Source: an uncultured Chloroflexia bacterium (GTDB taxonomy: Bacteria > Chloroflexota > Anaerolineae > Anaerolineales > UBA4823). Taken from it: a stretch of DNA of 64,000 nucleotides. The notes under the pieces are model-generated. The model was not told the DNA's origin. It worked only from the letters and a program-made list of their open reading frames with translations, and ran no database searches. Shown here piece by piece: positions 43,347 to 62,610 of the stretch (position 1 is its first letter; the number at the start of each line of letters is the position of its first letter). Where the stretch lies: NCBI GenBank assembly GCA_963797475.1, contig CAWCPR010000019.1, positions 186,987 to 250,986 of the forward strand. Direction: 5' to 3'. The position numbers and the translations under genes were made by a program.

Positions 43347-43362
43347 AGGCACAAAACTTGCA
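43347..43362 (+). promoter_or_regulatory. sigma-54-type -24/-12 promoter candidate AGGCAC-N5-TTGCA upstream of rpoN (overlaps a TAGGCA-N17-TATAAT sigma-70-like element)
   Basis: GG at 43348-49 and GC at 43360-61 have canonical spacing. It ends 36 nt before the rpoN ATG. TATAAT is at 43369-43374. Confidence 0.5.
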
Positions 43363-43398
43363 ACCATTTATAATTGATCCTATTCTCAGGAAACGAAA

Positions 43399-44808
43399 AT
43401 GCTATTACAAACACAAAATCACTCCTTACGTCCATTAACGACTGCGCATCTGGCGCAGACGATGACCCTGCTCGGGCTTCCGGCGCATGAACTCCGTCAA
43501 AAGATTAAATCTGAGCTGGCTTCCAATCCGGCGCTGGAATTAATTGAAGAGCGCCGCTGTCCGACCTGCCATCGACGCCTAAGTCACCGCGGGCCGTGCC
43601 TATTTTGCTCCCGCCCGAAAGCGACTGCAGGGGATCAACCGATTGTTTTCGTTTCCGCCAGAGAAGATGTTCGCAGTTATAAAGGCCGTTTTTCTACGGA
43701 TGAAGAGTTGCCCGATGAAGAATGGGCTGCAGCAACCGAAGAGCTGCCTGAATACGTGCTCAGACAAATTTCACCTGAGCTTGAGCCAGAGGACCGCCTG
43801 ATTGCAGCGCACATCCTCACCAGCCTGGATGACAACGGGCTTATGCCTGTTGAAATATTCGAAATTGCCCGTTATCACCACGTATTGATCTCTAAAGTCG
43901 AAAAAGTTCTCAATTTGATCCAACACGCAGACCCTATTGGCGTGGGATCTCCTTCTCCACAGCAGGCGCTCCTGGTACAAGCGCAAATCCTGGCGGAAAC
44001 GGGCGACATCAATCCATTGGTGGAGAAGGCGATCCGGGAGGGCATGGACTTACTCAGCCGGCGCGCATATCCGGAATTGGGCAGGAAGCTGGGTGTTTCC
44101 GCGGCGAAAGCGCATGAAATCGCATTGTTCATCGCGGATAATTTGAATCCATACCCCGGACATGCTCATTGGGGAGAAAGTCACACCAAAAGCGCCTCAC
44201 CGCTAACTTATAGCGAGCCAGACATTATCGTCTCACATTTAAACGATCCCGCCAGTTCACATCTGGTGGTTGAAATCTTATCTCCATACGCGGGCAGGCT
44301 ACGAGTTAACCCTCTTTTCCGTGAAGCTCTAACCAACGCTCCGGGTGAAAAAGCCGAACAATGGCAATCTGAAATCGACCAAGCCAGCTTACTGGTGAAG
44401 TGTCTGCAGCAACGCAACCATACTTTGGTGCGCTTAATGCAGCGAATGGTTGTAATCCAACGCGAATTCATCCTGCATGGGGATGCCCATCTGTTTCCAG
44501 TCACTCGCGCCCAACTGGCAGATGAGCTCGATGTTCATGAATCGACGATCTCCCGTGCAGTGTCCGGAAAAGCGCTTCAATTACCTAATCGTAAAATCAT
44601 CCCATTATCGAAACTTTTCGATCGCAGTCTGCATATACGTACCGCTCTTCGCCAAATTATCGATCAAGAATCGAAGCCGTTGAGCGACACCCAAATCAGC
44701 AAATTGTTGGATAAACAGGGATATTCGGTGGCGCGCCGAACTGTGGCAAAATACCGCTCTATGGAAGGAATTCTCCCAGCCCGCTACCGTCATTCAAACC
44801 AGGTATGA
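43399..44808 (+). CDS. rpoN: RNA polymerase sigma-54 factor with Cys4 zinc-ribbon-like insertion after region I
   Basis: Region I is LRPLTTAHLAQTMTLLGLPAHELRQKIKSELASNPALE. The C-terminal RpoN box is ARRTVAKYR. CPTC-x9-CLFC is at 43558-43608. Confidence 0.9.
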   Translation: MLLQTQNHSLRPLTTAHLAQTMTLLGLPAHELRQKIKSELASNPALELIEERRCPTCHRRLSHRGPCLFCSRPKATAGDQPIVFVSAREDVRSYKGRFSTDEELPDEEWAAATEELPEYVLRQISPELEPEDRLIAAHILTSLDDNGLMPVEIFEIARYHHVLISKVEKVLNLIQHADPIGVGSPSPQQALLVQAQILAETGDINPLVEKAIREGMDLLSRRAYPELGRKLGVSAAKAHEIALFIADNLNPYPGHAHWGESHTKSASPLTYSEPDIIVSHLNDPASSHLVVEILSPYAGRLRVNPLFREALTNAPGEKAEQWQSEIDQASLLVKCLQQRNHTLVRLMQRMVVIQREFILHGDAHLFPVTRAQLADELDVHESTISRAVSGKALQLPNRKIIPLSKLFDRSLHIRTALRQIIDQESKPLSDTQISKLLDKQGYSVARRTVAKYRSMEGILPARYRHSNQV

Positions 44809-44817
44809 AACTTCAAG

Positions 44818-46860
44818 ATGAGTTATCTTTCAAAGCTCTCTTTCGCAAACTTTAGCCCTAAACGTAATTCAAAAGCAGTTGAGATCGAAACCCTGCTCAA
44901 TTACATTCCCCATGCAGCCCTTCTGATCGATACTCAGACTGGACGAATAACCGGCGCTAATTATCGAGCAACCGAGCTGGTAGGAGCATCACCAACCGAG
45001 CTCAACAGGCTGAAAGCTGAAGAAGTGTTAGCCGGTTGGAATGAGCAATTTCCGCCTCAAAATCTGCTCCTCTCTCCTGATTTACCGCTCAACAATCCGA
45101 TTTGGCAGTCGAATTTAGAGTTGATTCAACGAGACGGTACAAGGATTAATATTCGCTTGACCCAAAAGGAGCTGCTGCCCAAAGATAGGCATATCCTGGT
45201 TATTTTTGACGCTGAGGATGATTTTAAAAATAACCGTTCTCAAATCCCTCAATCAACCTACATGTGGGAAAACTTGCTCAACCTGGCTGCTTCATCGCAA
45301 AAAACATCCTTCGAGCAAGGGATCAATCAAGCTTTGCAGGCTGGTCAGGTGCTTACCGAGGCAGGTATCCTGGCAGTCTATTATGCCAACGAACAAAACC
45401 CTGGTCTGGAGCGCTATTATGGGGTCGGCGAAACGGATAAACTACCCGAGCGCCTGTCACCACAGGACCTGACTCACCTGAACGTACCCTTCTTATGGAA
45501 ACCGAATGCCAGGTCACTCTCCAGCTTGCACCGGGCTGCTCGATCTTCAGGATTTTCCTACCTGGCTTCCAGTCCGCTGGGAAAGTCGACGGCATTGATT
45601 GGGCTATTGGTTGTGGCGGACCCCATAAAACAACCTGTCGAACAAATTCTCCCCTTCTTACAGCATGTTGGAACGACCATCACTGGCATCATCCAAAATT
45701 ACACCCGCTTCACCTCCATGGAAGAAACGCTCCAGAAACAAGCTTTGGACCTGGCGATTGCTGGTGCATTAGAGGAATCGGTTCTTGAAGGGTTGTTCGT
45801 CCTGACGCCGGATTTGTTAACATTGAAACTCAATCCAGCCGCTGAAGCGATGTTTGGATATTCTAACGAAGTTGCCCAAGGGCAGCCTGTTAAAAATATC
45901 CTGATCGGCTCGGAAACACTGCTTCCGGCATTGAAAGAAGCCCAACAAGGGAGCGGCACTTACGATCTTGGGAATATGCGCCTCTATCGCCGCAACGGCC
46001 AGGCTTTTTTGGCGCATTTACGCACGCTGCCAATATTGAAAAATGATTCTGTCGGCGGCATCATCGTCCTGATCCAGGACTTGAGCGAGCAAGAAGAGAT
46101 TAAAGAGCACACCCAACAATTAGAAAAGCGAGCATTGCTAGGAGAGTTCACCGCAATCTTCGCCCACGAGGTCAGAAACCCGATCAACAACATCAGCACC
46201 GGTTTGCAACTCATGGGGATGAACCTGCCCGAAGACGATCCGAACCAGGATGCGATCTCGCGCATGCAGCAGGATTGCGACCGGCTTGAAGATCTTATGA
46301 AATCAGTTCTTGCTATTTCCAAGCCTGCCGATTATGATATGGAAATCCTTAACCTGGAAATAGTCGTCCGGCGTCTACTCGAACGCATGCAACCGCGCAT
46401 GGTTAGGTTTAATGTGCAACCCCATCTCCAGGTAGAGCCCAACCTCCCGCCCGTACGCGGGAATTTACGGGCTTTGGAACAGGTGTTTAATAACCTGATC
46501 AACAATGCCGTTCAGGCAATGAGTGAAAAAGGCGGCCGGCTTGCACTTAAAATTCACCCCCTCAATACCTACCAGGATTTTGATTCGAGCCTGCCGCCAG
46601 GAGAAACACCCGAGCGGAAATCCTATTTAGAGGTAACTGTAGCCGATACCGGCCCGGGCATCCCGAAAGAATTGCAAGACAGGATCTTTCAAACGTTTTT
46701 CACCACAAACAAAGAAGGATACGGGTTGGGCTTGGCGATTGCCAAACGGATCGTTTTGGCTCACAAAGGAAATCTTTACGTCACCAGCTTCCCGGGCGGA
46801 ACGGTATTTCATGTGCAAATCCCCACGGCTGATGAACCTTACAACGATAAAACGAGGTAA
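44818..46860 (+). CDS. cytoplasmic multi-PAS/GAF sensor histidine kinase (NtrB-like core)
   Basis: H-box FAHEVRNPIN, N/G boxes (NLINNAVQAM, DTGPGIP, GYGLGLAI). No obvious TM segment. It starts 9 nt after rpoN. Confidence 0.85.
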   Translation: MSYLSKLSFANFSPKRNSKAVEIETLLNYIPHAALLIDTQTGRITGANYRATELVGASPTELNRLKAEEVLAGWNEQFPPQNLLLSPDLPLNNPIWQSNLELIQRDGTRINIRLTQKELLPKDRHILVIFDAEDDFKNNRSQIPQSTYMWENLLNLAASSQKTSFEQGINQALQAGQVLTEAGILAVYYANEQNPGLERYYGVGETDKLPERLSPQDLTHLNVPFLWKPNARSLSSLHRAARSSGFSYLASSPLGKSTALIGLLVVADPIKQPVEQILPFLQHVGTTITGIIQNYTRFTSMEETLQKQALDLAIAGALEESVLEGLFVLTPDLLTLKLNPAAEAMFGYSNEVAQGQPVKNILIGSETLLPALKEAQQGSGTYDLGNMRLYRRNGQAFLAHLRTLPILKNDSVGGIIVLIQDLSEQEEIKEHTQQLEKRALLGEFTAIFAHEVRNPINNISTGLQLMGMNLPEDDPNQDAISRMQQDCDRLEDLMKSVLAISKPADYDMEILNLEIVVRRLLERMQPRMVRFNVQPHLQVEPNLPPVRGNLRALEQVFNNLINNAVQAMSEKGGRLALKIHPLNTYQDFDSSLPPGETPERKSYLEVTVADTGPGIPKELQDRIFQTFFTTNKEGYGLGLAIAKRIVLAHKGNLYVTSFPGGTVFHVQIPTADEPYNDKTR

Positions 46861-46862
46861 TA

Positions 46863-48053: not shown

Positions 48054-48060
48054 TCCAAAC

Positions 48061-49569
48061 TCAAGGCTCGTTCCAAATCACATAGCTGTCCATATAACAA
48101 TATTTCTCCGTATTCCGAGTCGGTATACATACCTGGAACGCGATTAAAGTCCCGTTCTTTGCTGGAATTGGGGGGATGATAAGGTGCGATTGGCCGTTCA
48201 CACCTGTAAGCGGCATACGAAATTGCAGCCGGTCTCCCTCCGGCGGCATGACCGTCAATACAGGCTCCAAGTTGGTCAGGGGGACATTATTTTCCATCAC
48301 ACTTACCCAGATATCTTGCTCCTGATCAGATTGAACTAACTGGTGTGTCGCCCACACTTGCATACGGAGCTCACGTTCTGCTGGAGTAGGCATCTGAGGT
48401 GGCTGAGTGATTTTCGGTTGAACGTTTTTTTCCGTGCTTTCAGCCATTGTCAGGTGAAAGAAAAGCGCTTTATAGGTGTATCCAAGCGGCTCGGGGCGAA
48501 TGTCACCGTCTTGATTGGTGTTCAGGCAAAAGTTTTGGAAACACTGGCGAGATGTGTTATTTTCTATTGCCTTGAGCTCGGAAAGCGGCGCTCCCGAAAC
48601 CTCAATTCCCCCATGTTCTGTGATGTAATCCAGGAAGAATAATGGCACATTATGACCTAAATCACCTTGTATAGGGTAAAAAAACATGTTTGGATCGTTG
48701 CTGGGTAAAACCACGGGCTCTGGAGGATCTCCTATATCTTCAACAATATTCCGCAAAGTGACGATATTGTGGTCGTTCAGATCGACTGTCAACACAACAT
48801 TTTCGAATATTTGTTCCCCCTTGCCATCCTGGGCGATAAAAGCATCGGTAAGGGGGAAGCCCGTGAAATCCTTTCCAAAATTCTTGACCAAATTCTCGAA
48901 ATAAGAGTTGACTTTGGGAGGCGCTTCCAGAATGTTGTTTAATACTCCAGTATCTCGACATTGCTGGTTACAGTTCCAGGCTCCGTAGGGTAAAAGGCGC
49001 GCTTTTTCAGGAGAATCGCCTTCCGCGATGTAAAAGCCCAAATTCTCAAAATACTGTTCATAACGCTTTTTTTCGGGATTGTAATGCACTTCCGTCAGAG
49101 GTTTTCCAACTGTAAAGTCGCCGCCCAGTTTCTCGTATAAATTAATGAAATTCTGGAATAATATGTGACCGCCAACAAAAACAGCATCCGATCGTGTTGG
49201 CCTTGAAACCGGGGGTTCTGAAAAACCCATGACTTCGCCTAAAGGAGCCAGGTAAGTTCGTTTTGATCCAGAAAGCTTTGGGTCGAAAACCATCAAACCG
49301 CCAATGGTATATTGGCAGCGGACATCTCCCTGCGCAATAATTAATGAAATCGGCTCGCCTAAGGTCTCTGGTCCATTTAGCTTGTCATAAAACTCGCGAA
49401 ATAAGGGGTCAACCCGGTAAGAACTCTCTGCGGCTTGCGTTTCTATCGGAACAGAGGGCGCTTGATCGCATCCCAATACGATCAAAGCGAGGAGAATCAG
49501 CGTGAGCACCGCAAAATTTTTATAGGGGATTCTGGCAAACGGGAATGGCAAATTTATTCTCCACTCCAA
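48061..49569 (-). CDS. secreted lipoprotein with four internal ~45-aa repeats; function unknown
   Basis: Lipobox LIVLGC. Repeated pattern is F..F/Y...(L)GG....(L/V)G.P(L/I)(S/T)...Q.F.N, four times. Confidence 0.6.
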   Translation of the reverse strand: MEWRINLPFPFARIPYKNFAVLTLILLALIVLGCDQAPSVPIETQAAESSYRVDPLFREFYDKLNGPETLGEPISLIIAQGDVRCQYTIGGLMVFDPKLSGSKRTYLAPLGEVMGFSEPPVSRPTRSDAVFVGGHILFQNFINLYEKLGGDFTVGKPLTEVHYNPEKKRYEQYFENLGFYIAEGDSPEKARLLPYGAWNCNQQCRDTGVLNNILEAPPKVNSYFENLVKNFGKDFTGFPLTDAFIAQDGKGEQIFENVVLTVDLNDHNIVTLRNIVEDIGDPPEPVVLPSNDPNMFFYPIQGDLGHNVPLFFLDYITEHGGIEVSGAPLSELKAIENNTSRQCFQNFCLNTNQDGDIRPEPLGYTYKALFFHLTMAESTEKNVQPKITQPPQMPTPAERELRMQVWATHQLVQSDQEQDIWVSVMENNVPLTNLEPVLTVMPPEGDRLQFRMPLTGVNGQSHLIIPPIPAKNGTLIAFQVCIPTRNTEKYCYMDSYVIWNEP

Positions 49570-49676
49570 ATTTTCTTGTTTGGTATCGGCACAATATTAA
49601 ATGCACCCAAAACCTGCTCCCCTTTAATTCAACGAGATGACTGAGGCAGGAATATTATATCTCGGACTGAGATTTT

Positions 49677-49692
49677 TGGCACGCCTCTTGCA
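49677..49692 (+). promoter_or_regulatory. sigma-54 promoter, perfect core consensus TGGCACG-N4-TTGCA
   Basis: Read directly as gatttTTGGCACGCCTCTTGCActaaat. It is intergenic, oriented toward the ORF at 49809, and ends 116 nt before its ATG. Confidence 0.65.
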
Positions 49693-49808
49693 CTAAATCA
49701 ATAAGAATCTCTTATTAGCGTTGGATGCTCCTGGCGTATCGCGCATAAAGATGAAAAGATATTCATCCCATAGAGAGATGAATTTAACCCTTTCCAAGAC
49801 AGGCTCTC

Positions 49809-51179
49809 ATGATCTCACAAAGCTTACTCTCCACTACTTCCCGACTGGGATTTCATTATTTTCCCGATACAGTACATTATCGGGAGATCGATTTACATAC
49901 CTGGCTTCCTGAATTGAAGTCTCTGGGCAGCGCGTGGATAACCCTGGTTTCCCCTTTGGAAAGAGCCATACCGGAATATTTCCTGCGCGGTCTCTTGGAT
50001 GCAGGGATTGAACCCATCCTCCACTTTCCCGTAATGGTAGACACGCCGAACCTCTACCCTTCCTTGCAGCTCTTATTCAAAAATTATTCCCGCTGGGGTG
50101 TTCGCTTTGTTACACTTTTCGACCGTCCAAACATTCGAGCAGCCTGGTCCCCCAAGACTTGGACGCAAAGCGACCTGGTTGAGCGATTTCTCGATATTTA
50201 CCTGCCGCTAGCCGACCTGACTTTGAAAAGTGGCTTGACGCCCGTTTTTCCGCCTTTGGAGCCTGGAGGGGATTATTGGGATGTGGCTTTCCTCCAAGCC
50301 GCACTGCGCGGCATCCGCCGGCGCGGTCGCGCTAAACTGCTGGATGCGCTTACCTTGGGGGCTTACGCCTGGGCTGGAAACCGTTCACTAAACTGGGGGG
50401 CTGGGGGTCCCGAACGTTGGCCGTCTGCGCGTCCTTACTCGACTTCAACTAGGGTACAGGATCAGCGCGGTTTCAGGATTTTCGATTGGTATTTGACCAT
50501 TGCAAAGGCCGAACTTGGCCAACCCAAACAGATCCTGCTGTTAAAATCTGGGAGCCTGCTCGGCGACCACAACAATCCTGACCAGCCAGTGATAGATCAA
50601 AACACCCATTCGGAACGCAGCCTGGAAATTGCTCGTTTGATGGCCGGAGAGACAATCTCATCCCAAGACGGCCTTTTAGAATCCGTTCCTGCAGAAGTCA
50701 TCGCCTGTAATTACTGGCTGTTGTCCACCGATGCCAGCAGTTCAGCCGCCTCTCATGCATGGTTCCATCCGATTAATGGCCCCGTCTCGGCGGTGAACAC
50801 GCTGCATCATTGGTTGGCGAGCCGTGCAAAGATCACCAGTCAATTCGACATCCAGGGGACGTCCGGACAACCTGGCTCGAAACAAATCTCATCCTTTTTA
50901 GTTTCGACCGACCCCGAATCATCCCACCCAATCGCCCACTATCTTCTTCTTCCCGTTTACGAATGGGGCATTCACGATTGGCATCTGGACATTGTCCGCC
51001 CTTTCATCGAAAAAAACCATCCGACAGTTGGGTTCTCGATTATGGAGGCCTGCCTGGCCGCGCGGGTGACCGTAGTTGGTGGAGTTCAAGCCTTCCCAGA
51101 AGAAACTCTAGAAGTCCTCCGCTCCGCAGGCTGCCATGTAGAACGAATCATCGCAGATGGCACGGTTATTGCAACATAG
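49809..51179 (+). CDS. conserved hypothetical protein (456 aa), immediately upstream of ftsZ
   Basis: Long ORF with ordinary composition and no motif I can name. There is a 53-nt gap to ftsZ on the same strand. Confidence 0.6.
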   Translation: MISQSLLSTTSRLGFHYFPDTVHYREIDLHTWLPELKSLGSAWITLVSPLERAIPEYFLRGLLDAGIEPILHFPVMVDTPNLYPSLQLLFKNYSRWGVRFVTLFDRPNIRAAWSPKTWTQSDLVERFLDIYLPLADLTLKSGLTPVFPPLEPGGDYWDVAFLQAALRGIRRRGRAKLLDALTLGAYAWAGNRSLNWGAGGPERWPSARPYSTSTRVQDQRGFRIFDWYLTIAKAELGQPKQILLLKSGSLLGDHNNPDQPVIDQNTHSERSLEIARLMAGETISSQDGLLESVPAEVIACNYWLLSTDASSSAASHAWFHPINGPVSAVNTLHHWLASRAKITSQFDIQGTSGQPGSKQISSFLVSTDPESSHPIAHYLLLPVYEWGIHDWHLDIVRPFIEKNHPTVGFSIMEACLAARVTVVGGVQAFPEETLEVLRSAGCHVERIIADGTVIAT

Positions 51180-51232
51180 CTATTACCAAAGTACTGCGAG
51201 ACTAATAATTACCAAGAGCGAAAGGGATCACA

Positions 51233-52393
51233 ATGACCGACTTTTCATTATCCGGATCAATCCAACCGAGCCTGGATGGCATTCACAAACCCGTACTGAA
51301 GGTACTTGGCCTGGGCGGCGGAGGCAGCAACGCAGTCGGCCGGATGATTGAACTTGGCCTGACCGGCGTCGAGTTTATCGCGGCAAACACAGACCACCAG
51401 GCGCTGCTGACCAATCCTGCCCCTGTCAAAATCCAGCTCGGTCCGAAGGTCACGCGTGGGCTGGGTGCAGGAGGCAATCCAAGCGTTGGACAGGCAGCAG
51501 CGATTGAAAGCGCTCGAGAAATCGCTGCCGCGCTGCGCGGCGCCGACATGGTATTCCTAACCGCAGGCATGGGCGGCGGAACAGGCACCGGCTCTATCCC
51601 GGTCGCAGCAGAAATAGCGAGAGCTTTAGGAGCTGTCACGATTGCGATCGTGACCACGCCCTTCTCTTTCGAAATGGGGCGCCGGCAGCGCAATGCGAGT
51701 GAAGGATTGGCCAAGCTTCGCCAACAAACGAATACGCTCATCGCCATCCCCAATGATCGTCTGCTTTATGTGGCGCCGCGCAACCTGTCGTTGGAGACAG
51801 CTTTTCGCCTGGCGGACGATGTCTTACGCCAATCTGTGCAAGGTATTGCAGAGCTCATCACAGAACCTGGAATGATCAATGTTGATTTTTCGCACATTCG
51901 GCGTCTGATCCGCCTGGGAGGTGGCGCATTGATGGCGATTGGACAGGGACAGGGAGAAACCAAAACACACGACGCCTTAGATCAGGCGCTGCACCACCCG
52001 TTATTGGAATCGATCTCGCTGGAAAACGCGGCTGGTGTTATTGCTAACTTCACCGGCGGGCCTGATCTGACGTTGGCGGAAGTGGAAGAAGCCTTGACTC
52101 ATCTACAATCAGAGACCGGTGTTCAAACTGAGATCGTTTTGGGAGTTATCAACGATGACCGAATGGAAGACCGAGTCCAAACAATTCTGGTCATCACCGG
52201 GCTCGGAGCGCCAACATTGGAAGAAGCTTTATCCAGCGTAAAAAAGGCTCAACCACAGCCGAAACAAGAACCTACGCCAGTCCAACCCGAGGCGCCTCAA
52301 TCTGAAACTGCGTACCAACCGGAGCTTGCGGTCAACTCTCAGAACCTGGATGTCCCGGCATTCATCCGCCGCCGGAGCCGGTTAACGAACTGA
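51233..52393 (+). CDS. ftsZ: cell division GTPase FtsZ
   Basis: GLGGGGSNAV and GMGGGTGTG tubulin signature. C-terminal peptide is DVPAFIRRR. Confidence 0.95.
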   Translation: MTDFSLSGSIQPSLDGIHKPVLKVLGLGGGGSNAVGRMIELGLTGVEFIAANTDHQALLTNPAPVKIQLGPKVTRGLGAGGNPSVGQAAAIESAREIAAALRGADMVFLTAGMGGGTGTGSIPVAAEIARALGAVTIAIVTTPFSFEMGRRQRNASEGLAKLRQQTNTLIAIPNDRLLYVAPRNLSLETAFRLADDVLRQSVQGIAELITEPGMINVDFSHIRRLIRLGGGALMAIGQGQGETKTHDALDQALHHPLLESISLENAAGVIANFTGGPDLTLAEVEEALTHLQSETGVQTEIVLGVINDDRMEDRVQTILVITGLGAPTLEEALSSVKKAQPQPKQEPTPVQPEAPQSETAYQPELAVNSQNLDVPAFIRRRSRLTN

Positions 52394-52442: not shown

Positions 52443-52688
52443 ATGGACAAGGAACAAATCCAATCCATCAGTAATGTAATCTATCGCCGATTCCCAGAAT
52501 TTGCCGGCACTCGTCCGACAGTAAAGCCACAAAAAATGGCTTCAGTAATTCCTGGGGATTCAACCGGCACATACCTGCTGACTTTTCAAAAGAAAGCCAG
52601 CCTCCCTGGGAACAAAACCCTGTCTCGTTGGGTACGAGTTGTCGCCAACGAGCAGGGGAAAATTCTCAAAATAACCACCTCACGCTGA
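52443..52688 (+). CDS. hypothetical small protein (81 aa)
   Basis: ORF directly downstream of ftsZ. No recognisable motif. Confidence 0.35.
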   Translation: MDKEQIQSISNVIYRRFPEFAGTRPTVKPQKMASVIPGDSTGTYLLTFQKKASLPGNKTLSRWVRVVANEQGKILKITTSR

Positions 52689-52714: not shown

Positions 52715-52936
52715 ATGAATATCACTCAAATTCCACAGCGTATTGAGCTAGTATTCTGGACAACGATCATTCCATTGATGAAGGATTCGCCTCGCTTTCG
52801 AAAAATGCTGCGAGATTTTTACCAGTTCCTTGACAAAATGGACCGGCTGTTCTTTTATCTGCAGTTCGTCAGCTGGGGGATCGCCGGCCTTGCACTAGGA
52901 TTTTTAGCGGGCTTTCTCTTTTTGGCAGTACGATGA
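52715..52936 (+). CDS. hypothetical small membrane protein (73 aa)
   Basis: The internal ATG at 52715 avoids overlap with the preceding ORF. C-terminal TM is WGIAGLALGFLAGFLFLAV. ATGA overlap with the next gene. Confidence 0.4.
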   Translation: MNITQIPQRIELVFWTTIIPLMKDSPRFRKMLRDFYQFLDKMDRLFFYLQFVSWGIAGLALGFLAGFLFLAVR

Positions 52937-53706
52937 TCATGCGCTGGGTTAAGAAATTCCCCTTTCTCTTTATATTCATTACTTGCCTTCTCCTCGGGCT
53001 GGCAGCAGGATCTTCTTTTGGGCTGACAAATAAGATCATTAAATCGAAGGCTCAATCCGATGTTCAGACAGCGCAGGAGGCAAAAATCCCCTCGGTTACC
53101 CCAAATGGCCAGAGAAATCTGCTGGTCATCGGGGTCGACCTTCTGGATTTTAAGACCCCACGCTTAGAGAGCGTGTGGTTGGTGCTTTATTCTCCTGCGG
53201 CCCCAAGCCTGACCCTGCTTCCATTGTTCCCGGCGTCCCTTGAAGGCGGCCCGGCACGCGATGAATATCTAGAAGAAAATTTCAAGCTAGATGAAAATGG
53301 ATCATTAGGGCAAGATTTTAAAGCCGCGCTGATATCGAAGGACTTGTGGTGGAGTAATTATGCTGTCATTGATGAAGTTGGCCTGGCTGAATTGATCGAC
53401 ATGGTTGGAGGCGCTCGCGAGAATAATGAGCCGGTGAGTGGCTTGAGATTGGTTGCAGCCGCAACGCCTCCATGGGAGAACCGCCAGACAGCTTTGCGTG
53501 ATCAATCGCAAATTTTAGAGCAGCTTTGCCAGGTTTCAAGTGAGCCATTAATTGTGTCACAACCTGGGCATATCCTGGAACTGTTCGACCAACACCTGGT
53601 CACAGACCTGGCGCCCGATCTTGTGGTCTCCATTTGGCGAGATATCCACGCATCGGGCTACCGGTTTTGTAAGATCATCGCCCAACAATACTCCATTGAC
53701 CCATGA
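52933..53706 (+). CDS. LCP (LytR/CpsA/Psr)-like membrane-anchored protein, divergent
   Basis: N-terminal TM present. NLLVIGVD...RLESVWLVLYSP...LTLLPLFP and YAVIDEVGLAELIDMVGG resemble LCP core blocks. Confidence 0.5.
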   Translation: MIMRWVKKFPFLFIFITCLLLGLAAGSSFGLTNKIIKSKAQSDVQTAQEAKIPSVTPNGQRNLLVIGVDLLDFKTPRLESVWLVLYSPAAPSLTLLPLFPASLEGGPARDEYLEENFKLDENGSLGQDFKAALISKDLWWSNYAVIDEVGLAELIDMVGGARENNEPVSGLRLVAAATPPWENRQTALRDQSQILEQLCQVSSEPLIVSQPGHILELFDQHLVTDLAPDLVVSIWRDIHASGYRFCKIIAQQYSIDP

Positions 53707-53752: not shown

Positions 53753-53783
53753 CTCGGCGGAGAAAACCGCCGAGTTCTCACTT
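53753..53783 (+). terminator. rho-independent terminator candidate after the LCP-like gene
   Basis: CTCGGCGG-AGAAAA-CCGCCGAG forms a perfect 8-bp stem followed by TTCTCACTT. Confidence 0.5.
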
Positions 53784-53852
53784 GGAACGCCATAGGGACA
53801 ATTTGAATTGAGCTGGATCAGTCAAAGAGAAAATCTTCTACGGATACCAACG

Positions 53853-53868
53853 AGGCATAATTCTTGCA
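53853..53868 (+). promoter_or_regulatory. sigma-54-type promoter candidate AGGCAT-N5-TTGCA upstream of the TM/TPR/protease operon
   Basis: GG at 53854-55 and GC at 53866-67 have canonical spacing. It ends 33 nt before ATG 53902. The predicted start site falls just before the GGAAGGAGG SD. Confidence 0.45.
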
Positions 53869-53901
53869 CCACTACGATTGGGAAGGAGGCAGATTAAACT
53901 C

Positions 53902-54231
53902 ATGCTAACGCCTTACACCTTACTTTTGATCATGACTTTGATTTTGTTCTTGTTAGGACTGGCGACATTCATCACCGGGGTCTTGATCCTGGCGCTGCGC
54001 GCACCGGGCCGTGAAATTCAAACCCTGGCTACACAAACCACTCGCCTGGCTCAAAAAGGCCTGGCCCAAGAGGTCAGCGGATTGGTTGGCAATGCATCGA
54101 GCCTGTTAAGTGTTATCAACCAACTCGTTTTGACCACTTCAGGGGTGGGAGCATTTATCACTTTGCTCGGCTTGTTGATCATGGGCGCGGCCTGCTGGTT
54201 AGCATTCAAGATATTTCAGGTGCCGCTATGA
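53902..54231 (+). CDS. small two/three-TM membrane protein (109 aa), first gene of the TPR operon
   Basis: Hydrophobic segments LLLIMTLILFLLGLATFITGVLILAL and GAFITLLGLLIMGAACWLAF. ATGA overlap with the next gene. Confidence 0.5.
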   Translation: MLTPYTLLLIMTLILFLLGLATFITGVLILALRAPGREIQTLATQTTRLAQKGLAQEVSGLVGNASSLLSVINQLVLTTSGVGAFITLLGLLIMGAACWLAFKIFQVPL

Positions 54232-57200: not shown

Positions 57201-59873
57201 CAAGCGATCCTTTTTCTCGAGCGTGCCGTCTCGGAGAAAAGAGACGAGAACGGCCAATTTAGAGAAAATAGCCTTGACGCCCTTGCTCCTGTCGATCTAT
57301 TAATCGAGCTATCCAGCGCTTACCGCCAAATCGGTCACTACGAGGCCGCACTCAAAACATTGGATGAAACGATCAATCTAAAACCGGGTGATGCAAACCT
57401 TTATGTAAGCAAAGCGGATCTGCTGCTCCAGGCGGGAGAACCACAAGAAGCACAGGCGATTATTCAAAAAGCCCTTGAAATCAACCCGGCGGATGCAGGT
57501 CTCCATCACAAGGCCGCCATCATCTTGCGCGCCAATAACGACCTCCCCTCTGCTTTAGCCCACGCCGAACAGGCGGCGTTCTTGGAAACGAACGGTTCTG
57601 GAATGAGCCACTACCTTGCTGCAGAATTGGCTTGTATTATGCTCCAACCGTTCAGAGCGCGTGAAATCCTTAAAAACCAAAGCGTGCCTGCAGAGGAAAA
57701 TGATACCCAGGTAGATGCCCTGCTTTTACGGACAGAGCTTGCCCTTGAAGCAGGCGAAGATTCCCAGGCTTCTGCGCTATTTGCAGCCAGCGGCGAAAAG
57801 GCCCCCCTGCACCCGCGTGGTCTTTCTGTTCAAGCGCGACTGACAGCCCGGCATGGCGACCATAAAGGGGCCGTCCAGTTTCTTCAGGAAGCCTTGAGAG
57901 GCATCCATTTCCCTCCAGCCCGAAAGAGCGTAGAGCCCGTGCGGCCACTTGGGAATGATGAAATTGCTGCCTGGCGCGGCGTGGGTGAAGCGGCTTTGGA
58001 GATTGCCGAATGGAATTTATCTTTGGAGCTATTCGGCAAAATTGCCGAAAATACTTCGCAAGAACCGCTGTCCCATCTTCAACTGGCGCGTGCACTGGTC
58101 CTTCAGGCCGAAGCACAACGGTTATGTAATGCCCTGGAAGTTGTCCAACATGCACCGGGAAACGAGTCGCTTTCGGAAGAATCCTATCAATTGTTTGAAA
58201 ATGCCATACAAGCTGCCTTTAAGCTGGTGGAAAGCTGGAAGTCATCAACCCCCGGAGACAAGCCTGCGGAAGGAGTTTCAGGAGAACAAGGCTCTGCCAC
58301 GCAAACATTCCGTCAAATCCCTCAATCCAGGGCCAGCATCGAGCGCTGGTATGCCCGTGGGAAAGCTGCATTCCACCCGGCGCCGCAGAGCGTGCAAGCC
58401 CTCGAAGGATTGCCCCCTGGTCCGGATATTGTCGCGGCTTTGGTTTCAACCCTGGGCACTTATGGTGATCCTATAGCGGCAACGAAGGCTGCACAGGCAT
58501 ACCCCCAACATCCCTGGGTTCTGCTGCAGCTTGCCCTGGTACAGGCCAATCAAAACCCTCAGCAAGCGCTGGGCACGGCTACCGTAGCGGTCGAATACCT
58601 ATCCCAAAGGTCTTATAAACGGCCGCACGAGACCCCCTTGCGGTACTTTCTATTGGCAAGACTGGCTCACCGGGTTGGCAATCATGCCATGGCCTTAAAG
58701 GCTATTCAAGCTGCTTTGAATTCCAGGCCTGATGAACCTCGTTGGCACGCATTGGCCGCCGAAATCTTCCAATTCAAAGGCGACCCTGCCTCACCCGCAG
58801 ACATCCCCGCCGCCGTCGCGCATTTGGAATCAGCCACACGCTTAGAACCCAAACATGCCCCCCATTACCTGGCTCTCGGTCGTGCGTACCTGGAAATCGG
58901 AGAGCATTCTAAAGGTCTGGAAACCCTGGAACAAGCCTGCCGCATCGCCCCCAATGAGTTTGAATCATGGTTAGCCCTCTCCTGCGCACAATTGGCTATA
59001 GGAGATTTAGAACAGGCAGCGGTAAGCGCCGAAAATGCGGTTGAGCATGCTGAGGACCCAATGGAGGCTTTGTTGCTGCGCGGCGAAATTGCTTTGAAAA
59101 CCAATAACCCGCGTGGCGCTCAAAGCCGGGCTCAGGCTGTCCTGCATATGAGGCCCGATCAACCACAGGCACTGACCCTGCTTGCTCACGCTCTAAAAGA
59201 TCTGAACCGGCCGGCCGAAGCGCTAGAGATATTGGAAAAGGCTATCCCACTTATCGGAAACCCGTTGCCTTTGCAATTGGAACGCGCTGCATTACTGCGG
59301 ATGTCTCAGGGCCAGGAAACTGCCTTAATCGCGTTGCAGGACCTGGCTAACCACTATCCCCAAGATGCGATGGTGCTGGCATCTTTGGCTGAGGCTTTAA
59401 TGGAAGGGAAAAAACCTGAGACCGCCATCCAGGCTGCCCGGCAGGCGCTGCAAATCGATGCAGGCGAACTGCCGCCACAAGCGAAATCACAGCTCCACTT
59501 TTTGATCGGCCGCCAACAGCGGCATAACGGCCAATTAGACCAGGCAATCCATCATTTGAGCCAGGCAATTCAACTTTGGCGCGAGAACGTGGAAGCCTAC
59601 CTGGAACTCGGATTCTCCCACCAGGACCGGCGCCAACAAAATCTGGCGTTAAAAGTCTACCAGCAAGCCATGCAAATCGCCTCCAACGATTACCGGCCCT
59701 ATTACCAGGCCGGGTTGGCATTGAAAGAGAGCAAAGATTACATGGGAGCAGAGTTTATGCTTCGCCGGGCAGCCCAATTAGCGCCTAACGATGTCAGCAT
59801 CCACAGGCTGCTCGGCGCAGTTGTCGCTCTGAATCTCGTCCACAACAGACACCAAACACCATCACACCTGTAA
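54228..59873 (+). CDS. giant tetratricopeptide-repeat protein (1881 aa)
   Basis: Dozens of 34-aa TPR-like units (e.g. EAIEAWKQATQIDPGN, AMGEFQQATQLAPHQAETWLAYAEAY, ALKVYQQAMQIASNDYRPYYQAGLAL). No signal peptide seen. Confidence 0.85.
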   Translation: MTSSHHLVELKKKFPGEVWNWLVLSLRQDPSIWNQLEDTDFGRSALEELTNQPEDWSPASLALLDMHYSAPRNALFSEPMPPLTPPLKRMANQAYQGWIAKQPTGATRLAQAGLIALYLREQRIENGSWQDVCIEILLRSEQNTQLTSTILACLFGMISDPVDLLSNLIVSEVPGIVPSKKSNLAVQMVLSNPLLPEEQGRIFSQSLGKINLDQQLAVLKALREQRQSLAVQLTKALAENSINLDQKSGNEPGSQEFGRSASDLLKRLTKLVETSEICRLGAQPTLFIPTAKDAIALTRHIQAFLADQVGQTALLSGENNEAIEAWKQATQIDPGNSLYAAGLAKALIRSGRSEDAQAYLTTVHSELHQPLHPAIQLATLMAISSQNQPELVKTGATNVAKTILAGYELESYENSASYSDDLKSLCHLLLELGLNNEAAQIAEFILTKHPNDPIFLEIFARALYSNGLFSKALAPALVLVVLEPENLSLRNLFVDILEGSQEWTTALNERKAILEQSEVHSLKEIHDLAKCALNAGDIEQALQACENALEMDPKNGAIFATLGRVRIALGDNEQAMGEFQQATQLAPHQAETWLAYAEAYCATGQPAKALEILRTASLATPNDPQIHLALGKSYLEEKSPTQALTSFRQAAALLNYKSAPPSSGTGEKDVKSTPEGPPSRLALQIAYHLGETLHQLGHLEEARQVLEEAYSKAQGNPDLAYAYAKILLDLDEDKAALPALKVIVKSKPESPTPYLEYARALLAADEQPQRALTLLNHVLKSSENMPAVSQEAQALLGEAYAAAGNLAKAREAFRQALDSPIAQEPSWRARLSMGFGKVNLLLGQVETALAALQEAVSFGSQDARIHRSLSEAYLESGLITESFQAAHEALKLEPSDLANLTWFVSQALRIHEQPGGIQLTAEEDAIQALKRATQLAPERGDLLIRLGELELREGNSQAALDAFNRLAAIPKALDSDLYQAAIQLRQLGSSEQAILFLERAVSEKRDENGQFRENSLDALAPVDLLIELSSAYRQIGHYEAALKTLDETINLKPGDANLYVSKADLLLQAGEPQEAQAIIQKALEINPADAGLHHKAAIILRANNDLPSALAHAEQAAFLETNGSGMSHYLAAELACIMLQPFRAREILKNQSVPAEENDTQVDALLLRTELALEAGEDSQASALFAASGEKAPLHPRGLSVQARLTARHGDHKGAVQFLQEALRGIHFPPARKSVEPVRPLGNDEIAAWRGVGEAALEIAEWNLSLELFGKIAENTSQEPLSHLQLARALVLQAEAQRLCNALEVVQHAPGNESLSEESYQLFENAIQAAFKLVESWKSSTPGDKPAEGVSGEQGSATQTFRQIPQSRASIERWYARGKAAFHPAPQSVQALEGLPPGPDIVAALVSTLGTYGDPIAATKAAQAYPQHPWVLLQLALVQANQNPQQALGTATVAVEYLSQRSYKRPHETPLRYFLLARLAHRVGNHAMALKAIQAALNSRPDEPRWHALAAEIFQFKGDPASPADIPAAVAHLESATRLEPKHAPHYLALGRAYLEIGEHSKGLETLEQACRIAPNEFESWLALSCAQLAIGDLEQAAVSAENAVEHAEDPMEALLLRGEIALKTNNPRGAQSRAQAVLHMRPDQPQALTLLAHALKDLNRPAEALEILEKAIPLIGNPLPLQLERAALLRMSQGQETALIALQDLANHYPQDAMVLASLAEALMEGKKPETAIQAARQALQIDAGELPPQAKSQLHFLIGRQQRHNGQLDQAIHHLSQAIQLWRENVEAYLELGFSHQDRRQQNLALKVYQQAMQIASNDYRPYYQAGLALKESKDYMGAEFMLRRAAQLAPNDVSIHRLLGAVVALNLVHNRHQTPSHL

Positions 59874-59878
59874 ACAAT

Positions 59879-62545
59879 ATGAGCTCTACATCGAACTTCG
59901 CCACTACATTGGACCAACAGTTACTGACTCGCCAGTCTTACATAAAAATGCTGAAGGCCGGTAATTCGACCGGTGAATTCCAATTCGTACACAATGCAGC
60001 AATGAACTGGCTGGCAGCTTATCCAGGCGACTTACAAGTAGGTTTACTGTACGCCATATCTTTAATGGAATTGGACAAAATACGCCAATCCTTGCCGGTT
60101 TTCGAGGGGCTTTGCCAGGCAGACCCGGAATTCTTGCAGGCGGCTGAGGGATTATTCAAGGCGCAATCAAAGACGAATGACCGCCAGGTCCCGAATACAC
60201 TGGCTTATCTCCTGGCCTTGGGCGGAAATGCGGGCGAACAAGAGACTGTGGCGCTTTGGGGTCGCCAGCTTTGGCTAAGCCGGTTTGCGATGCAAAAAGG
60301 CAACTTCGACCAGGCGGAAGATCTAATCCGCCAGATCCTGGCTATCGATCCCCCAACGCCATTAGTGGCCGTCACCCACCTGGAGATCTTAGAAGCCAAT
60401 GGACAGAGCCCGCTGCCAGCAAAATGCAGTCTGGCGGATTTCTACCACCAACGTTGGCCAAACTGCGTTCAGTGTACTTTATTCCTGGCCAATTGGTTGA
60501 TGGACAGCGGCGAGCATGATCGCGCTGTCTCCCTGCTGCACCAGGCAGCAGTGCGTGATGTGGGCGGTCAGGTTGCTACCCGCGTTTGGGGACACGGACA
60601 CCCTTATCGAAAAGTTTGGCCCACGAACTTAGAATTGGAGTTAAAATCCCAAATCCCCTCCGCTGTCGCTGCCGCTTTAGGTTGGAACCAGCTACCCAAA
60701 GAAATTCATAAGCAAGAAAAAGCAATACCGGCTTCTACTGCACCTGGAGAAGCGGTACTAACCCAGGCTCCGGAAACGGTCAGTGAATCGCTGCAAAGAC
60801 CGGATCGCCCACCCTTATATTCGCCTGTTGACCTTCCTGAATCTTTACTTCCGATCCAGGAAGAACTTGAAAAAATGGCGGGGCGATTAAACAGGCCAGG
60901 GCTTACACAATCTGATGGACGTTTTCCAGTCTACGTGGTCTTCTCCGTGCGTTCAAGGCTGGAATCGTATTATGGATTCCAGGCAGCCGGAGAGATCGAG
61001 GCGGAGATGGCCCGTCTGGCTGAAACTGCCCAAACCAAACCTTTAAGTCGGGAACGCCGGTTTTGGGGTGGGCGGATCTTTTTTCCTGATGCACCCTCAG
61101 GCTTTGAGAATTTCGAGTTTAAGCCTGCGAAACCAGGGGATCCCTGGGAATTAAAGCTTGCGCTGGCGGATTTGGACTCTTTCCTGGCGCAACGCGGCGA
61201 AAAAATCGGCTCGCTCCTGATCGTCGGAGGACCGGAAATTGTCCCTTTCCACCACCTGCCAAACCCTGTCGATGACGAAGATGCAGATGTGCCTTCAGAT
61301 AACCCGTATGCCACCCGGGATGAGAACTACTTCATACCCGAATGGCCGGTTGGCCGGGTTCCGGGTGGCTGCGGAAATGACCCTTCTCTGATCCTTAAAA
61401 CACTGCGCCAAATGAACTCCCAGCTTCGCGACCGATCCCGCAGGAGACCCTGGTACAAGAGGCTCTGGAAGCAACTCACAGGCTGGATCAAGCCTTCCCC
61501 CACCGCTGGCCGCCAGAGCCTGGGCTACACCGCTGCGATCTGGAAGCAATCCTCCCTTCAGGTTTTTCATCCGATCGGGGAAGCAGGTGCAATGCTGGTC
61601 TCCCCTCCAACGTCTGTCAACGCTGGACCGGGGAATGAAATATCTCAATTCGTTTTACCCCTTGCAAAATTAGGCTACTACAATTTGCATGGTTTGATAG
61701 ACGCCGGAGAATGGTACGGGCACCGGGATGCTTATACCGATCAGGATGGACCAGATTACCCGGTGGCGCTACGTCCGGAGGATATCTACAATGGTGTGGA
61801 CTGCAAACCTGCGCCATCAGTGGTTTTTAGCGAAGCCTGCTACGGCGCGCATATTGAAGGAAAGGCCATTCCAGAGGCATTGTCGCTCAGCTTTTTATCC
61901 GCCGGCTGCCAGACATTGATCGGCTCGACCTGTATGGCTTATGGTTCGGTAAACAAGCCGCTCATCGCAGCCGACCTGCTTGGATATGTATTCTGGAGTC
62001 GTTTGCGTGAGGGATTGCCGGCTGGAGAGGCTTTGCGGTGGGCAAAAATCCAGCTTGCGAACGAGATGAACCAGCGCCAGGGTTATCTGGATGGCGAGGA
62101 TCAGAAGACGCTTATTTCTTTTGTCCTTTATGGCGACCCAATGGCGCGGCTATCAGCCAACCAAAGATCTTCGAAACATGTGCGCCAATTTTTAACGCAA
62201 CCGGCTGAGATCAAGACGGTTTGCGACCGGGTGGATTCACATCAAGATGTCCAAACGGTTCCACAAGAAGTTCTGGAATACGTCCGGCATGTCGTTACCC
62301 AATATCTTCCTGGGATGGAAGGGGCTCGAATGACCTTTGCCAGGGAACATGCTAAATGCGACACTTCCTCACATAAATGCCCAACCGGACAGCTTCACAA
62401 GACCACACAGGTGGAGCAAGCCCCAAACCGGCGCCTAGTCACCTTGAGCAAGCAGGTCCAGCGCGCCGATCACACCCACAATCAATATGCGCGTCTGACT
62501 CTGGACGCAAAAGGAAAGCTTGTCAAATTGGTAGTTTCTCGCTGA
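59879..62545 (+). CDS. TPR-like N-terminal domain fused to a gingipain (C25)/caspase-like clan-CD cysteine peptidase domain
   Basis: LLIVGGPEIVPFH...SDNPYA...VGRVPG resembles the peptidase C25 core. The candidate dyad is His604 (YYNLHG, 61688-90) and Cys654 (VVFSEACYG, 61838-40), followed by FVLYGDP. There is a 5-nt gap from the TPR gene. Confidence 0.65.
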   Translation: MSSTSNFATTLDQQLLTRQSYIKMLKAGNSTGEFQFVHNAAMNWLAAYPGDLQVGLLYAISLMELDKIRQSLPVFEGLCQADPEFLQAAEGLFKAQSKTNDRQVPNTLAYLLALGGNAGEQETVALWGRQLWLSRFAMQKGNFDQAEDLIRQILAIDPPTPLVAVTHLEILEANGQSPLPAKCSLADFYHQRWPNCVQCTLFLANWLMDSGEHDRAVSLLHQAAVRDVGGQVATRVWGHGHPYRKVWPTNLELELKSQIPSAVAAALGWNQLPKEIHKQEKAIPASTAPGEAVLTQAPETVSESLQRPDRPPLYSPVDLPESLLPIQEELEKMAGRLNRPGLTQSDGRFPVYVVFSVRSRLESYYGFQAAGEIEAEMARLAETAQTKPLSRERRFWGGRIFFPDAPSGFENFEFKPAKPGDPWELKLALADLDSFLAQRGEKIGSLLIVGGPEIVPFHHLPNPVDDEDADVPSDNPYATRDENYFIPEWPVGRVPGGCGNDPSLILKTLRQMNSQLRDRSRRRPWYKRLWKQLTGWIKPSPTAGRQSLGYTAAIWKQSSLQVFHPIGEAGAMLVSPPTSVNAGPGNEISQFVLPLAKLGYYNLHGLIDAGEWYGHRDAYTDQDGPDYPVALRPEDIYNGVDCKPAPSVVFSEACYGAHIEGKAIPEALSLSFLSAGCQTLIGSTCMAYGSVNKPLIAADLLGYVFWSRLREGLPAGEALRWAKIQLANEMNQRQGYLDGEDQKTLISFVLYGDPMARLSANQRSSKHVRQFLTQPAEIKTVCDRVDSHQDVQTVPQEVLEYVRHVVTQYLPGMEGARMTFAREHAKCDTSSHKCPTGQLHKTTQVEQAPNRRLVTLSKQVQRADHTHNQYARLTLDAKGKLVKLVVSR

Positions 62546-62573
62546 TACCAAAATTCTAAGCACCGGAATAGTC

Positions 62574-62610
62574 AAAACGAGGCCTGTCAATAAGCCTCGT
62601 TTTAATTTTC
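62574..62610 (+). terminator. strong rho-independent terminator
   Basis: AAAACGAGGC-N10-GCCTCGTTTT forms a perfect 10-bp stem followed by AATTTTCCC. Confidence 0.7.

Follow-up and report, generated by a model that had tools for sequence, protein, structure and literature searches.

What does a complete sigma-54 regulatory cassette control when it stands beside an ftsZ gene? This question is raised by a 64,000-nucleotide (nt) stretch of DNA from an uncultured bacterium of the order Anaerolineales, phylum Chloroflexota (contig C19:186987-250986 of assembly G000; the whole stretch is called the window here, and positions are counted from its first nucleotide). In this window rpoN and the genes of a histidine kinase and a sigma-54 activator are followed by a block of genes that contains ftsZ and ends with TPR proteins, a protease and a serine hydrolase. 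Anaerolineae are filamentous bacteria that abound in digesters, sludge, soils and sediments and are poorly represented in culture; the length of their filaments matters there for bulking and granulation. Known roles of sigma-54 regulons are in nitrogen metabolism, flagella, envelope functions and development. Francke et al. found that cell-cycle and division genes are not over-represented around sigma-54 elements (PMC3162934, Table 2), and that sigma-54 occurs in some Chloroflexi only (PMC3162934). Our literature search returned no description of sigma-54 linked to ftsZ, of RpoN in Chloroflexi or Anaerolineae, or of a second FtsZ of Anaerolineae. A preliminary description of the window had proposed a local regulon, in which a sigma-54 switch would control the ftsZ-containing unit and the protease operon. 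We found that the sigma-54 wiring of the locus is, on the sequence evidence, very likely real, and that the locus as a whole is probably the core of an Anaerolineales sigma-54 regulon dedicated to septation and cell-wall remodelling. This finding points to an undescribed signal-gated cell-division programme across the order Anaerolineales of filamentous Chloroflexota.

The assembly (22 contigs, 5.82 Mb) is a metagenome-assembled genome (MAG) rated 88.5% complete with 6.8% contamination. It was compared with 41 genomes of the same family and order and with 80 further species loci, and gene order was compared in twenty 20-kb loci of relatives. Related loci occur in Anaerolineales, Anaerolineaceae, Anaerolinea, Leptolinea, Longilinea and Ornatilinea. 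A 20-position weight matrix (PWM) was built from 54 sites of relatives only, and the genome was then scanned with it; the coding fraction of 90% came from crude gene calls. Gene content, motifs, their conservation and enrichment, and their co-occurrence with rpoN were all computed.

Four matches to the pattern GGCAY-N5-TTGCA were found in the window (at 43348, 49678, 51159 and 53854), all of them on the plus strand and within 10.5 kb. Shuffled windows gave an expectation of 0.35 matches, and none of 100 shuffles reached four; the exact pattern is found 27 times in the 5.82-Mb genome, with about 0.05 matches expected per 10.5-kb stretch. Three of these sites had been listed in the preliminary description, and both they and their distances to the next gene were confirmed (P1, 36 nt; P2, 116 nt; P3, 33 nt), while the fourth, P2b at 51159, had been overlooked. 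The core of P2b (51159-51173) falls within the final seven codons of orf456 and precedes the ATG of the ftsZ gene, here called ftsZ2, by 59 nt. All local sites have the GG-N10-GC spacing of sigma-54 promoters, are co-oriented with the downstream gene and lie 33-116 nt before start codons. When the whole genome was scanned with the PWM, the four sites ranked 1, 3, 4 and 6, with scores of 21-28 bits. At a threshold of at least 18 bits the genome holds 13 sites. Nine of them are intergenic, with a co-oriented gene no more than 300 nt downstream, and another is P2b, embedded in coding DNA before ftsZ2. The comparison of coding with intergenic density, which had been proposed as a check, showed that the two are not equal: nine of the 13 strong sites are intergenic in a genome that is 90% coding, and strong sites are about 7-fold enriched in the 10% that is non-coding.

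The same arrangement was observed in relatives. Gene order in the 20 long loci is rpoN-kinase-activator-(orf502)-orf456-ftsZ-orf81-(orf257)-TM-TPR-protease-hydrolase, where TM stands for a small transmembrane protein, and sigma-54 motifs are found at equivalent places in these loci. Among the 41 genomes, an rpoN orthologue is present in 37, orf456 in 35 and an FtsZ 55-78% identical to that of the window in 34. More widely, orf456 is present in at least 518 species genomes, and ftsZ2 directly follows it in every locus with context examined. P1 was detected in 13 of 13 relatives (23-30 bits), mostly 31-37 nt before the rpoN start and up to 109 nt where the rpoN alignment begins later. P2 scores at least 18 bits in 65 of the 80 species loci, at 20-210 nt upstream, and is recognisable in nearly all of them; P2b is present in 76 of the 80. 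Control upstream regions (kinase, orf81, orf257, orf502 and hydrolase) never exceeded 12 bits in relatives, the region before orf502 remaining below 12 bits in 11 relatives. In four genomes (G021, G039, G010 and G022) rpoN is far from orf456 and ftsZ2, yet the promoters remain beside the target genes. Also, rpoN was found in every ftsZ2-bearing genome, and one family (f15, eight near-complete genomes) has neither rpoN nor orf456 nor ftsZ2.

P2b is a special case, being written into coding sequence. It overlaps the codons D-G-T-x-I-A-T of orf456 in an identical reading frame in 76 of 76 orthologues. Its Gly codon is GGC in 73 of 76, compared with 34% elsewhere in the same genes, and its Ala codon is GCA in all 76, compared with 21% elsewhere. 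The third codon is always A[C/T]N, with the residue varying among T, M and I, and the fifth is NTT in 76 of 76, with I, L, V or F as the residue. Because synonymous positions are fixed while residues vary, selection acts on GGCAY and TTGCA and not on the peptide. If the wiring holds, P2b would be a clear case of a promoter placed in the synonymous sites of coding DNA.

The cassette that would serve these promoters is compact. rpoN is the sole sigma-54 gene of the assembly (a single tblastn match in the genome), and in relatives the kinase gene always sits between it and the activator gene. The gaps given earlier, 9 nt between rpoN and the kinase gene and 2 nt between the kinase and activator genes, were reproduced. 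No hydrophobic segment was seen in the kinase sequence when it was read by eye. The activator carries a receiver domain and its gene starts 2 nt after that of the kinase, which predicts a cognate pairing. It scores 232 bits with PF00158 (Sigma54_activat) and 87.5 bits with Response_reg, and the GAFTGA loop is present. Its AAA_lid_14 match ends at residue 393, the protein stops three residues later and it covers positions 1-385 of the 463 of the NtrC model; it therefore has no DNA-binding domain of the helix-turn-helix (HTH) type. Similarly, 13 orthologues stop 0-30 residues past their alignment with the window protein, leaving no room for an HTH, and the preliminary description, which had read the activator as devoid of a DNA-binding domain, is thus borne out by Pfam, the NtrC model and the orthologue ends. 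The protein fits group Ic of the enhancer-binding proteins (EBPs), those lacking a DNA-binding domain, in which CtcC and FlgR are listed (PMC3162934). These two HTH-less activators need no enhancer (PMC3162934, PMC7482065), and by analogy the activator of the window would be expected to serve all sigma-54 promoters in the cell. A single sigma-54 and a single PF00158 protein, the HTH-less one adjoining rpoN, are encoded in most genomes of the order. The genome studied here has a second EBP (G000:C1:452448-454481), a 678-residue AAA+ regulator with an HTH and with GVARKR in the place of GAFTGA; G038, a genome without rpoN, also encodes regulators of this type. It is probably not a sigma-54 activator, and a role as an alternative activator for some of the sites is unlikely, given the missing GAFTGA and the occurrence of the type in an rpoN-less genome.

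Upstream of rpoN, the sigma-54 site overlaps a putative sigma-70-type promoter (region 43346-43374). When the window was compared with 13 relatives, 11 of the 14 sequences showed an equivalent overlap: eight have a TATAAT-like hexamer 16-17 nt past the -24 element, and three others have a TATACT hexamer at the same distance past the -12 element. No such TATAAT-type box was found at P2. The basal sigma-70 promoter would supply the first sigma-54, and with the activator on, positive feedback would follow; with the activator off, sigma-54 holoenzyme may occlude the sigma-70 promoter of rpoN.

Which FtsZ is controlled here? Judged by its sequence, the ftsZ of the window is an accessory paralogue, FtsZ2, and the canonical FtsZ1 is encoded in the division and cell wall (dcw) cluster. 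The proposed link of sigma-54 to an ftsZ unit stands, with the amendment that the gene, an accessory paralogue, encodes an altered T7 loop and is not the canonical division gene. The product of ftsZ1, on contig C3, is 47% identical to FtsZ2 over the aligned core. ftsZ2 is not at the end of the dcw cluster, a position taken by ftsZ1, and is preceded instead by orf456. Both proteins keep GGGTGTG and the C-terminal D-L-D-I-P-x-F-L-R peptide. Among FtsZ2 orthologues GGGTG[ST]G is found in 73 of 76 (GGGTGTG in the window), and most have the C-terminal consensus D/N-L-D-[LIV]-P-A-F-[LM]-R, which reads LDVPAFIRRR in the window. The T7 loop is NVDFSH in the FtsZ2 of the window versus NLDFAD in FtsZ1 (canonical NxDFAD), and at the position of the second Asp of this loop, E. 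coli D212, 63 of 73 FtsZ2 orthologues have His, nine have Asn and one has Asp. In E. coli, D212A leaves 7% of GTPase activity (PMC8142252), and in D212G the GTPase activity is reduced to 14% and the treadmilling speed to 6.7%, with uneven septal synthesis (bioRxiv 10.1101/077610). Since the GTP-binding motifs and the anchor peptide are kept while the T7 Asp is replaced by His or Asn, FtsZ2 would be expected to form slow polymers.

Candidate targets were also found outside the window. The gene of an Amidase_3 cell-wall amidase (L119; G000:C19:40535-41465) has a 20-bit sigma-54 motif 128 nt upstream; a motif of at least 13.5 bits was present in 14 of 30 amidase loci examined, this genome included, and absent in three genomes without detected rpoN. 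Another motif (L156; G000:C3:748824-748843) was found within murB, roughly 470 nt into the gene and on its coding strand, with ddl-ftsQ-ftsA-ftsZ1 downstream. Its codons read xTG GCN NNN ATC TTG CAN; ATC TTG CA is kept in 35 of 35 genomes with rpoN, and the Leu codon is always TTG, compared with a background of 28%. Motif and peptide are both gone in nine of nine rpoN-less genomes (G034, G038 and a further seven from family f15); of these nine, eight are 98-100% complete. Two incomplete genomes that apparently have none of the locus keep the murB site, and these probably just miss one contig. With a -24 half that is often weak, the murB site is regarded as a good lead and not as a settled promoter. 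The regulon thus probably also takes in the Amidase_3 gene and a murB-internal promoter feeding ddl-ftsQ-ftsA-ftsZ1. As to the local regulon proposed earlier, its existence is supported by the conservation of sites, the codon evidence and the co-occurrence with rpoN, and its purely local scope is contradicted by the probable amidase and murB targets. Besides, strong intergenic PWM matches were observed before the genes of a 1105-residue dCache-HAMP-GAF-PAS kinase (C3:158270), an MBL-fold protein (C1:2683962) and an FHA membrane protein (C1:2705531).

The mechanism that we infer runs from phosphotransfer and transcription from these sites to FtsZ2 biochemistry and a physiological outcome. The cytoplasmic PAS kinase would phosphorylate the one functional EBP of the cell, and this HTH-less protein would act from solution on any sigma-54 closed complex. 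P1 would drive rpoN, kinase and activator, adding positive feedback over the basal sigma-70 promoter; P2 would drive orf456; P2b would drive ftsZ2 and the genes downstream; and P3 or read-through would drive the genes of the TM protein, the 1881-residue TPR protein, the TPR-protease and the peptidoglycan-binding serine hydrolase. Beyond the window, the same sigma factor would probably drive the Amidase_3 gene and, from within murB, ddl-ftsQ-ftsA-ftsZ1. Either by itself or together with FtsZ1, FtsZ2 would form polymers that hydrolyse GTP slowly and treadmill poorly. The target set (two FtsZ proteins, ftsQ, ftsA and ddl, an amidase and a hydrolase) suggests septation or septal-wall remodelling in multicellular filaments, and our guess is that the outcome might be a signal-triggered special septation, or fragmentation or remodelling of filaments. 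A bolder version, which we consider speculative and somewhat doubtful, is that sigma-54 acts as a dedicated "division sigma factor": a single cytoplasmic kinase and a single activator that needs no enhancer would synchronously fire their own operon, the genes of a naturally GTPase-attenuated FtsZ2 and its TIM-barrel partner, of the TPR-scaffolded protease and of the septal hydrolases and, by way of the promoter within murB, ddl-ftsQ-ftsA-ftsZ1. If this were true, septation or fragmentation of the multicellular filaments would be all-or-none and signal-gated, and a static FtsZ2 scaffold together with proteolysis would replace control by treadmilling. If the wiring holds, a natural FtsZ with a crippled T7 loop would be used alongside a normal one, a second caspase-fold protease would be tied to division in multicellular bacteria, after cyanobacterial HetF, and a minimal sigma-54 system (one sigma factor, one kinase, one activator and about ten promoters) would be available that is easy to rebuild in vitro.

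Several observations weigh against this explanation. Conservation of the three motifs first listed held for P1 and P2 and failed for P3, equivalents of which (22-26 bits) were found in just four of 13 relatives; where P3 is missing, the TM/TPR/protease operon probably depends on upstream promoters. In many genomes, this one included at 14.6 bits, the murB site has a weak -24 half (GGCC or GGCT; 9-15 bits). The organism of the window was found in three soil DNA runs and in no RNA run. Metatranscriptome contigs of one relative (L036) span the locus, P2 included, at a depth of 2-10 with no defined 5' ends, and neither show nor exclude start sites. Among the structural genes of the block, a function could be assigned for FtsZ2 alone. 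In G004 and G008, both incomplete, rpoN, EBP, orf456 and ftsZ2 are absent together; this may reflect one missing contig and is therefore not independent evidence. Finally, the genome is a MAG in which G+C content is 52% in contig C19, which carries the window, and in C20, compared with 55-57% in the large contigs. Given the MAG quality and the composition of C19, contig membership calls for caution, and the claim of two FtsZ proteins per cell rests on closed genomes of relatives. A binning artefact, in which the two ftsZ genes would derive from two binned organisms, was rejected as a general explanation on the ground that closed single-contig relatives carry both genes.

One alternative accepts the wiring and holds that the module is not for division, being instead a separate cytoskeletal, membrane-remodelling or stress/defence-type system that reuses the FtsZ fold, as is the case for FtsZ-like families in other settings. 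In its favour, ftsZ2 is the sole divisome gene of the block, and the protease and orf456 genes are found together in other settings. In the two most distant loci (L023 and L029) the protease gene lies directly before orf456, with its own motif. In a genome of another Chloroflexota class (L199; G071:C43:18000-23355) a C25-like protease gene is directly followed by an orf456 homologue; G071 has no rpoN and no sigma-54 motif, and no ftsZ was found in the 1.7 kb downstream of the pair. The protease/TIM-barrel pair may thus be older than its link to sigma-54 and FtsZ2. The combination of TPR with a clan-CD protease is also the architecture of CRISPR-associated TPR-CHAT (bioRxiv 10.1101/2022.09.03.506347). 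We nevertheless consider this alternative unlikely, as FtsZ2 keeps the peptide that canonical FtsZ uses for FtsA/SepF-type anchors, the other probable targets are septal-wall genes (Amidase_3 and the murB site before ddl-ftsQ-ftsA-ftsZ1), the block closes with a peptidoglycan-binding serine hydrolase, and the locus has no mobile-element context and is syntenic across an order.

Could the sigma-54-driven ftsZ be the main or only division gene of the lineage, making sigma-54 an obligatory licence for every division? FtsZ2 does score above the TIGR00065 equivalog cut-off and retains the anchor-binding peptide. Also, ftsZ1 of the dcw cluster (L203; G000:C3:752984-754139) is frameshifted in this assembly by a 1-nt insertion in a CCCCGGG run at about position 941, and if this were real, ftsZ2 would be the sole intact copy here. 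The frameshift, which sits in a homopolymer of a MAG and is crossed by no strain reads (DNA runs at this place gave short conserved fragments from other organisms only), is probably an assembly error. In relatives, 40 of 41 genomes, closed ones included, hold a second FtsZ at 43-50% identity, and its gene follows ftsA in the canonical murC-murB-ddl-ftsQ-ftsA cluster in six of six examined. Seven genomes have FtsZ1 alone, presumably family f15 too, and no complete genome has FtsZ2 alone. The T7 Asp, needed for turnover in canonical FtsZ, is moreover lost in FtsZ2, and a main division role for this gene is, on these points, quite improbable. That the conserved motifs are not sigma-54 promoters at all, and are kept for protein coding or for another DNA-binding protein while sigma-54 regulates something else, is very unlikely. 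P2b and the murB site do lie in coding DNA with conserved peptides (DGTxIAT and [MVL]AxIL[HQ]), but the synonymous positions of P2b are fixed and its residue changes always preserve GGCAY-N5-TTGCA. P1 and P2 lie between genes and keep the GG-N10-GC spacing exactly, the motifs disappear precisely in the genomes that lack rpoN, and all four local sites come within the top six sigma-54 matrix matches of the genome.

How does a sigma-54 regulon dedicated to septation compare with known systems? The sigma-H-dependent ftsAZ promoter of Bacillus subtilis and the sporulation-specific ftsZ promoter of Streptomyces boost ftsZ for special septation. As would be the case for the murB-internal site, alternative transcription raises division genes there for non-vegetative septation; these bacteria use sigma-70-family factors and a single ftsZ, whereas sigma-54, an ATP-dependent activator and a dedicated second FtsZ are predicted here. 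The combination of sigma-54, a kinase and an HTH-less activator is an already known mechanism class. In the CtcB-CtcC-sigma-54 system of Chlamydia (PMC7482065) there are likewise one sigma-54, one kinase and one HTH-less receiver-AAA+ activator, with a small envelope-oriented regulon tied to a developmental transition, as proposed here. Chlamydia differs in having no FtsZ and a regulon of type III secretion and membrane proteins, whereas in Anaerolineales the three genes form one putatively autoregulated operon whose predicted targets comprise an FtsZ paralogue, genes for the divisome and for peptidoglycan, and a TPR/clan-CD protease. Similarly, FlgS-FlgR-RpoN of Helicobacter and Campylobacter has a cytoplasmic kinase and an enhancer-independent HTH-less activator for all sigma-54 promoters, but its targets are flagellar and it has neither an autoregulated rpoN operon nor a link to division. 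With regard to FtsZ, chloroplasts have two paralogues per compartment, FtsZ1 and FtsZ2, one of which sets polymer stability and turnover (PMC8142252). Co-assembly is likewise predicted for the Anaerolineales pair, in which one paralogue naturally lacks the T7 Asp and stands behind candidate sigma-54 promoters. The E. coli D212 mutants, which are altered at the same T7 position, polymerise but are poor in GTP hydrolysis and treadmilling; they are laboratory mutants of the sole FtsZ, whereas throughout the order Anaerolineales a natural accessory paralogue carries His or Asn as a fixed substitution. The closest functional analogy for the protease is HetF of Anabaena, a clan-CD protease of the CHAT family that becomes part of the divisome and breaks down PatU3 (PMC8406250, PMC9457339). 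Both are caspase-fold proteases linked, in our case by prediction, to division in multicellular filamentous bacteria; HetF is a CHAT-domain membrane protein, whereas the protease described here appears C25-like, TPR-fused and soluble, and cyanobacteria have no sigma-54 (PMC3162934). What is new, as far as can be told, is that a whole sigma-54 system would be dedicated to division genes and to an accessory FtsZ that is catalytically altered.

Table 1. Features of the sigma-54/ftsZ2 locus, in window coordinates. Promoters are predicted; PWM ranks are among all sites of the genome.
Feature	Position	Strand	Sequence, family match or remark
P1, predicted -24/-12 promoter before rpoN	43346-43365	+	TAGGCACAAAACTTGCAACC; PWM 21.2 bits, rank 6
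TATAAT box of putative sigma-70-type promoter (TAGGCA-17-TATAAT) overlapping P1	43369-43374	+	10/12 match
rpoN	43399-44808	+	Pfam Sigma54_AID/CBD/DBD; RpoN box ARRTVAKYR
PAS histidine kinase, 680 residues, cytoplasmic	44818-46860	+	Pfam PAS, HisKA, HATPase_c
Response-regulator AAA+ activator, 396 residues	46863-48053	+	Pfam Response_reg, Sigma54_activat, AAA_lid_14
orf502, divergent, lipoprotein-like, conserved neighbour	48061-49569	-	LxGC lipobox; no sigma-54 motif
P2, predicted sigma-54 promoter before orf456	49676-49695	+	TTGGCACGCCTCTTGCACTA; PWM 23.0 bits, rank 3
orf456, putative TIM-barrel with C-terminal alpha/beta domain, cytoplasmic	49809-51179	+	AlphaFold2 (AF2) predicted local distance difference test (pLDDT) 82.9; directly before ftsZ2
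P2b, predicted sigma-54 promoter in last codons of orf456	51157-51176	+	ATGGCACGGTTATTGCAACA; PWM 28.3 bits, rank 1
ftsZ2, accessory FtsZ paralogue	51233-52393	+	TIGR00065 373.9 bits (cut-off 295.2)
orf81, small conserved protein after ftsZ2	52443-52688	+	Syntenic in most relatives; no family match
orf257, membrane-anchored	52933-53706	+	N-terminal hydrophobic segment; syntenic in many relatives, 27-37% identity
P3, predicted sigma-54 promoter before TM/TPR/protease operon	53852-53871	+	GAGGCATAATTCTTGCACCA; PWM 22.5 bits, rank 4
Small membrane protein	53902-54231	+	Probable start ATG 53902 behind GGAAGGAGG; 45-63% identity in relatives
TPR protein, 1881 residues	54228-59873	+	Pfam TPR families; kept between TM and protease genes
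TPR + Peptidase_C25-like clan-CD cysteine protease, 888 residues	59879-62545	+	Pfam C25 34.4 bits (cut-off 23)
TM + peptidoglycan-binding-like + class-A beta-lactamase-like serine hydrolase, last gene of block	62653-63999, runs past window	+	Pfam Beta-lactamase2

The remaining proteins of the block (Table 1) were examined for function. The protease matches C25 over residues 640-758, which align with model positions 257-374 of 374 only. Its NLHG (His604) and EACYG (Cys654) motifs are invariant in ten orthologues. The AF2 model has a pLDDT of 65.5 overall and 40-75 in the C25-like domain, and the N-terminal 270 residues are TPR. All matches of the protein in PDB profile and Foldseek searches were TPR proteins, with no protease relative in PDB; the fold being unconfirmed in this way, the clan-CD assignment rests on the Pfam match and the invariant dyad. 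Neither a signal peptide nor a hydrophobic N-terminus was seen by eye, and the protease is, by its sequence, cytoplasmic, unlike the secreted or surface gingipains. The intracellular clan-CD protease of the preliminary description was thus recovered as a gingipain/C25-like protein with an intact His/Cys dyad. No CHAT match was found among its Pfam hits at E <=0.001, and the TPR plus clan-CD architecture appears only analogous to that of the CHAT proteases HetF and TPR-CHAT.

For orf456, no sequence match was found in Pfam, NCBIfam or PDB, and no signal peptide. Foldseek gave weak matches to GH128, GH84 and aldolase barrels, with query TM-scores of just 0.3-0.4. Residues E56, N108 and D158 are invariant and the AF2 model, which is confident, shows strand/helix alternation; a GH-A catalytic Glu pair could not be assigned. 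The protein may, tentatively, be a (beta/alpha) barrel of glycosidase-like type, the likeness being one of generic fold. The possibility that it is a divergent FtsA was dropped, its fold being a barrel and the true ftsA preceding ftsZ1. Similarly, a reading of orf257 as LytR/LCP-like, made by eye, had no family match behind it and was abandoned. In the last gene of the block, an in-frame TGA at 63001-63003, which could be a nonsense mutation or a sequencing error, splits what in relatives is one protein of 496-497 residues with Trp at the TGA position.

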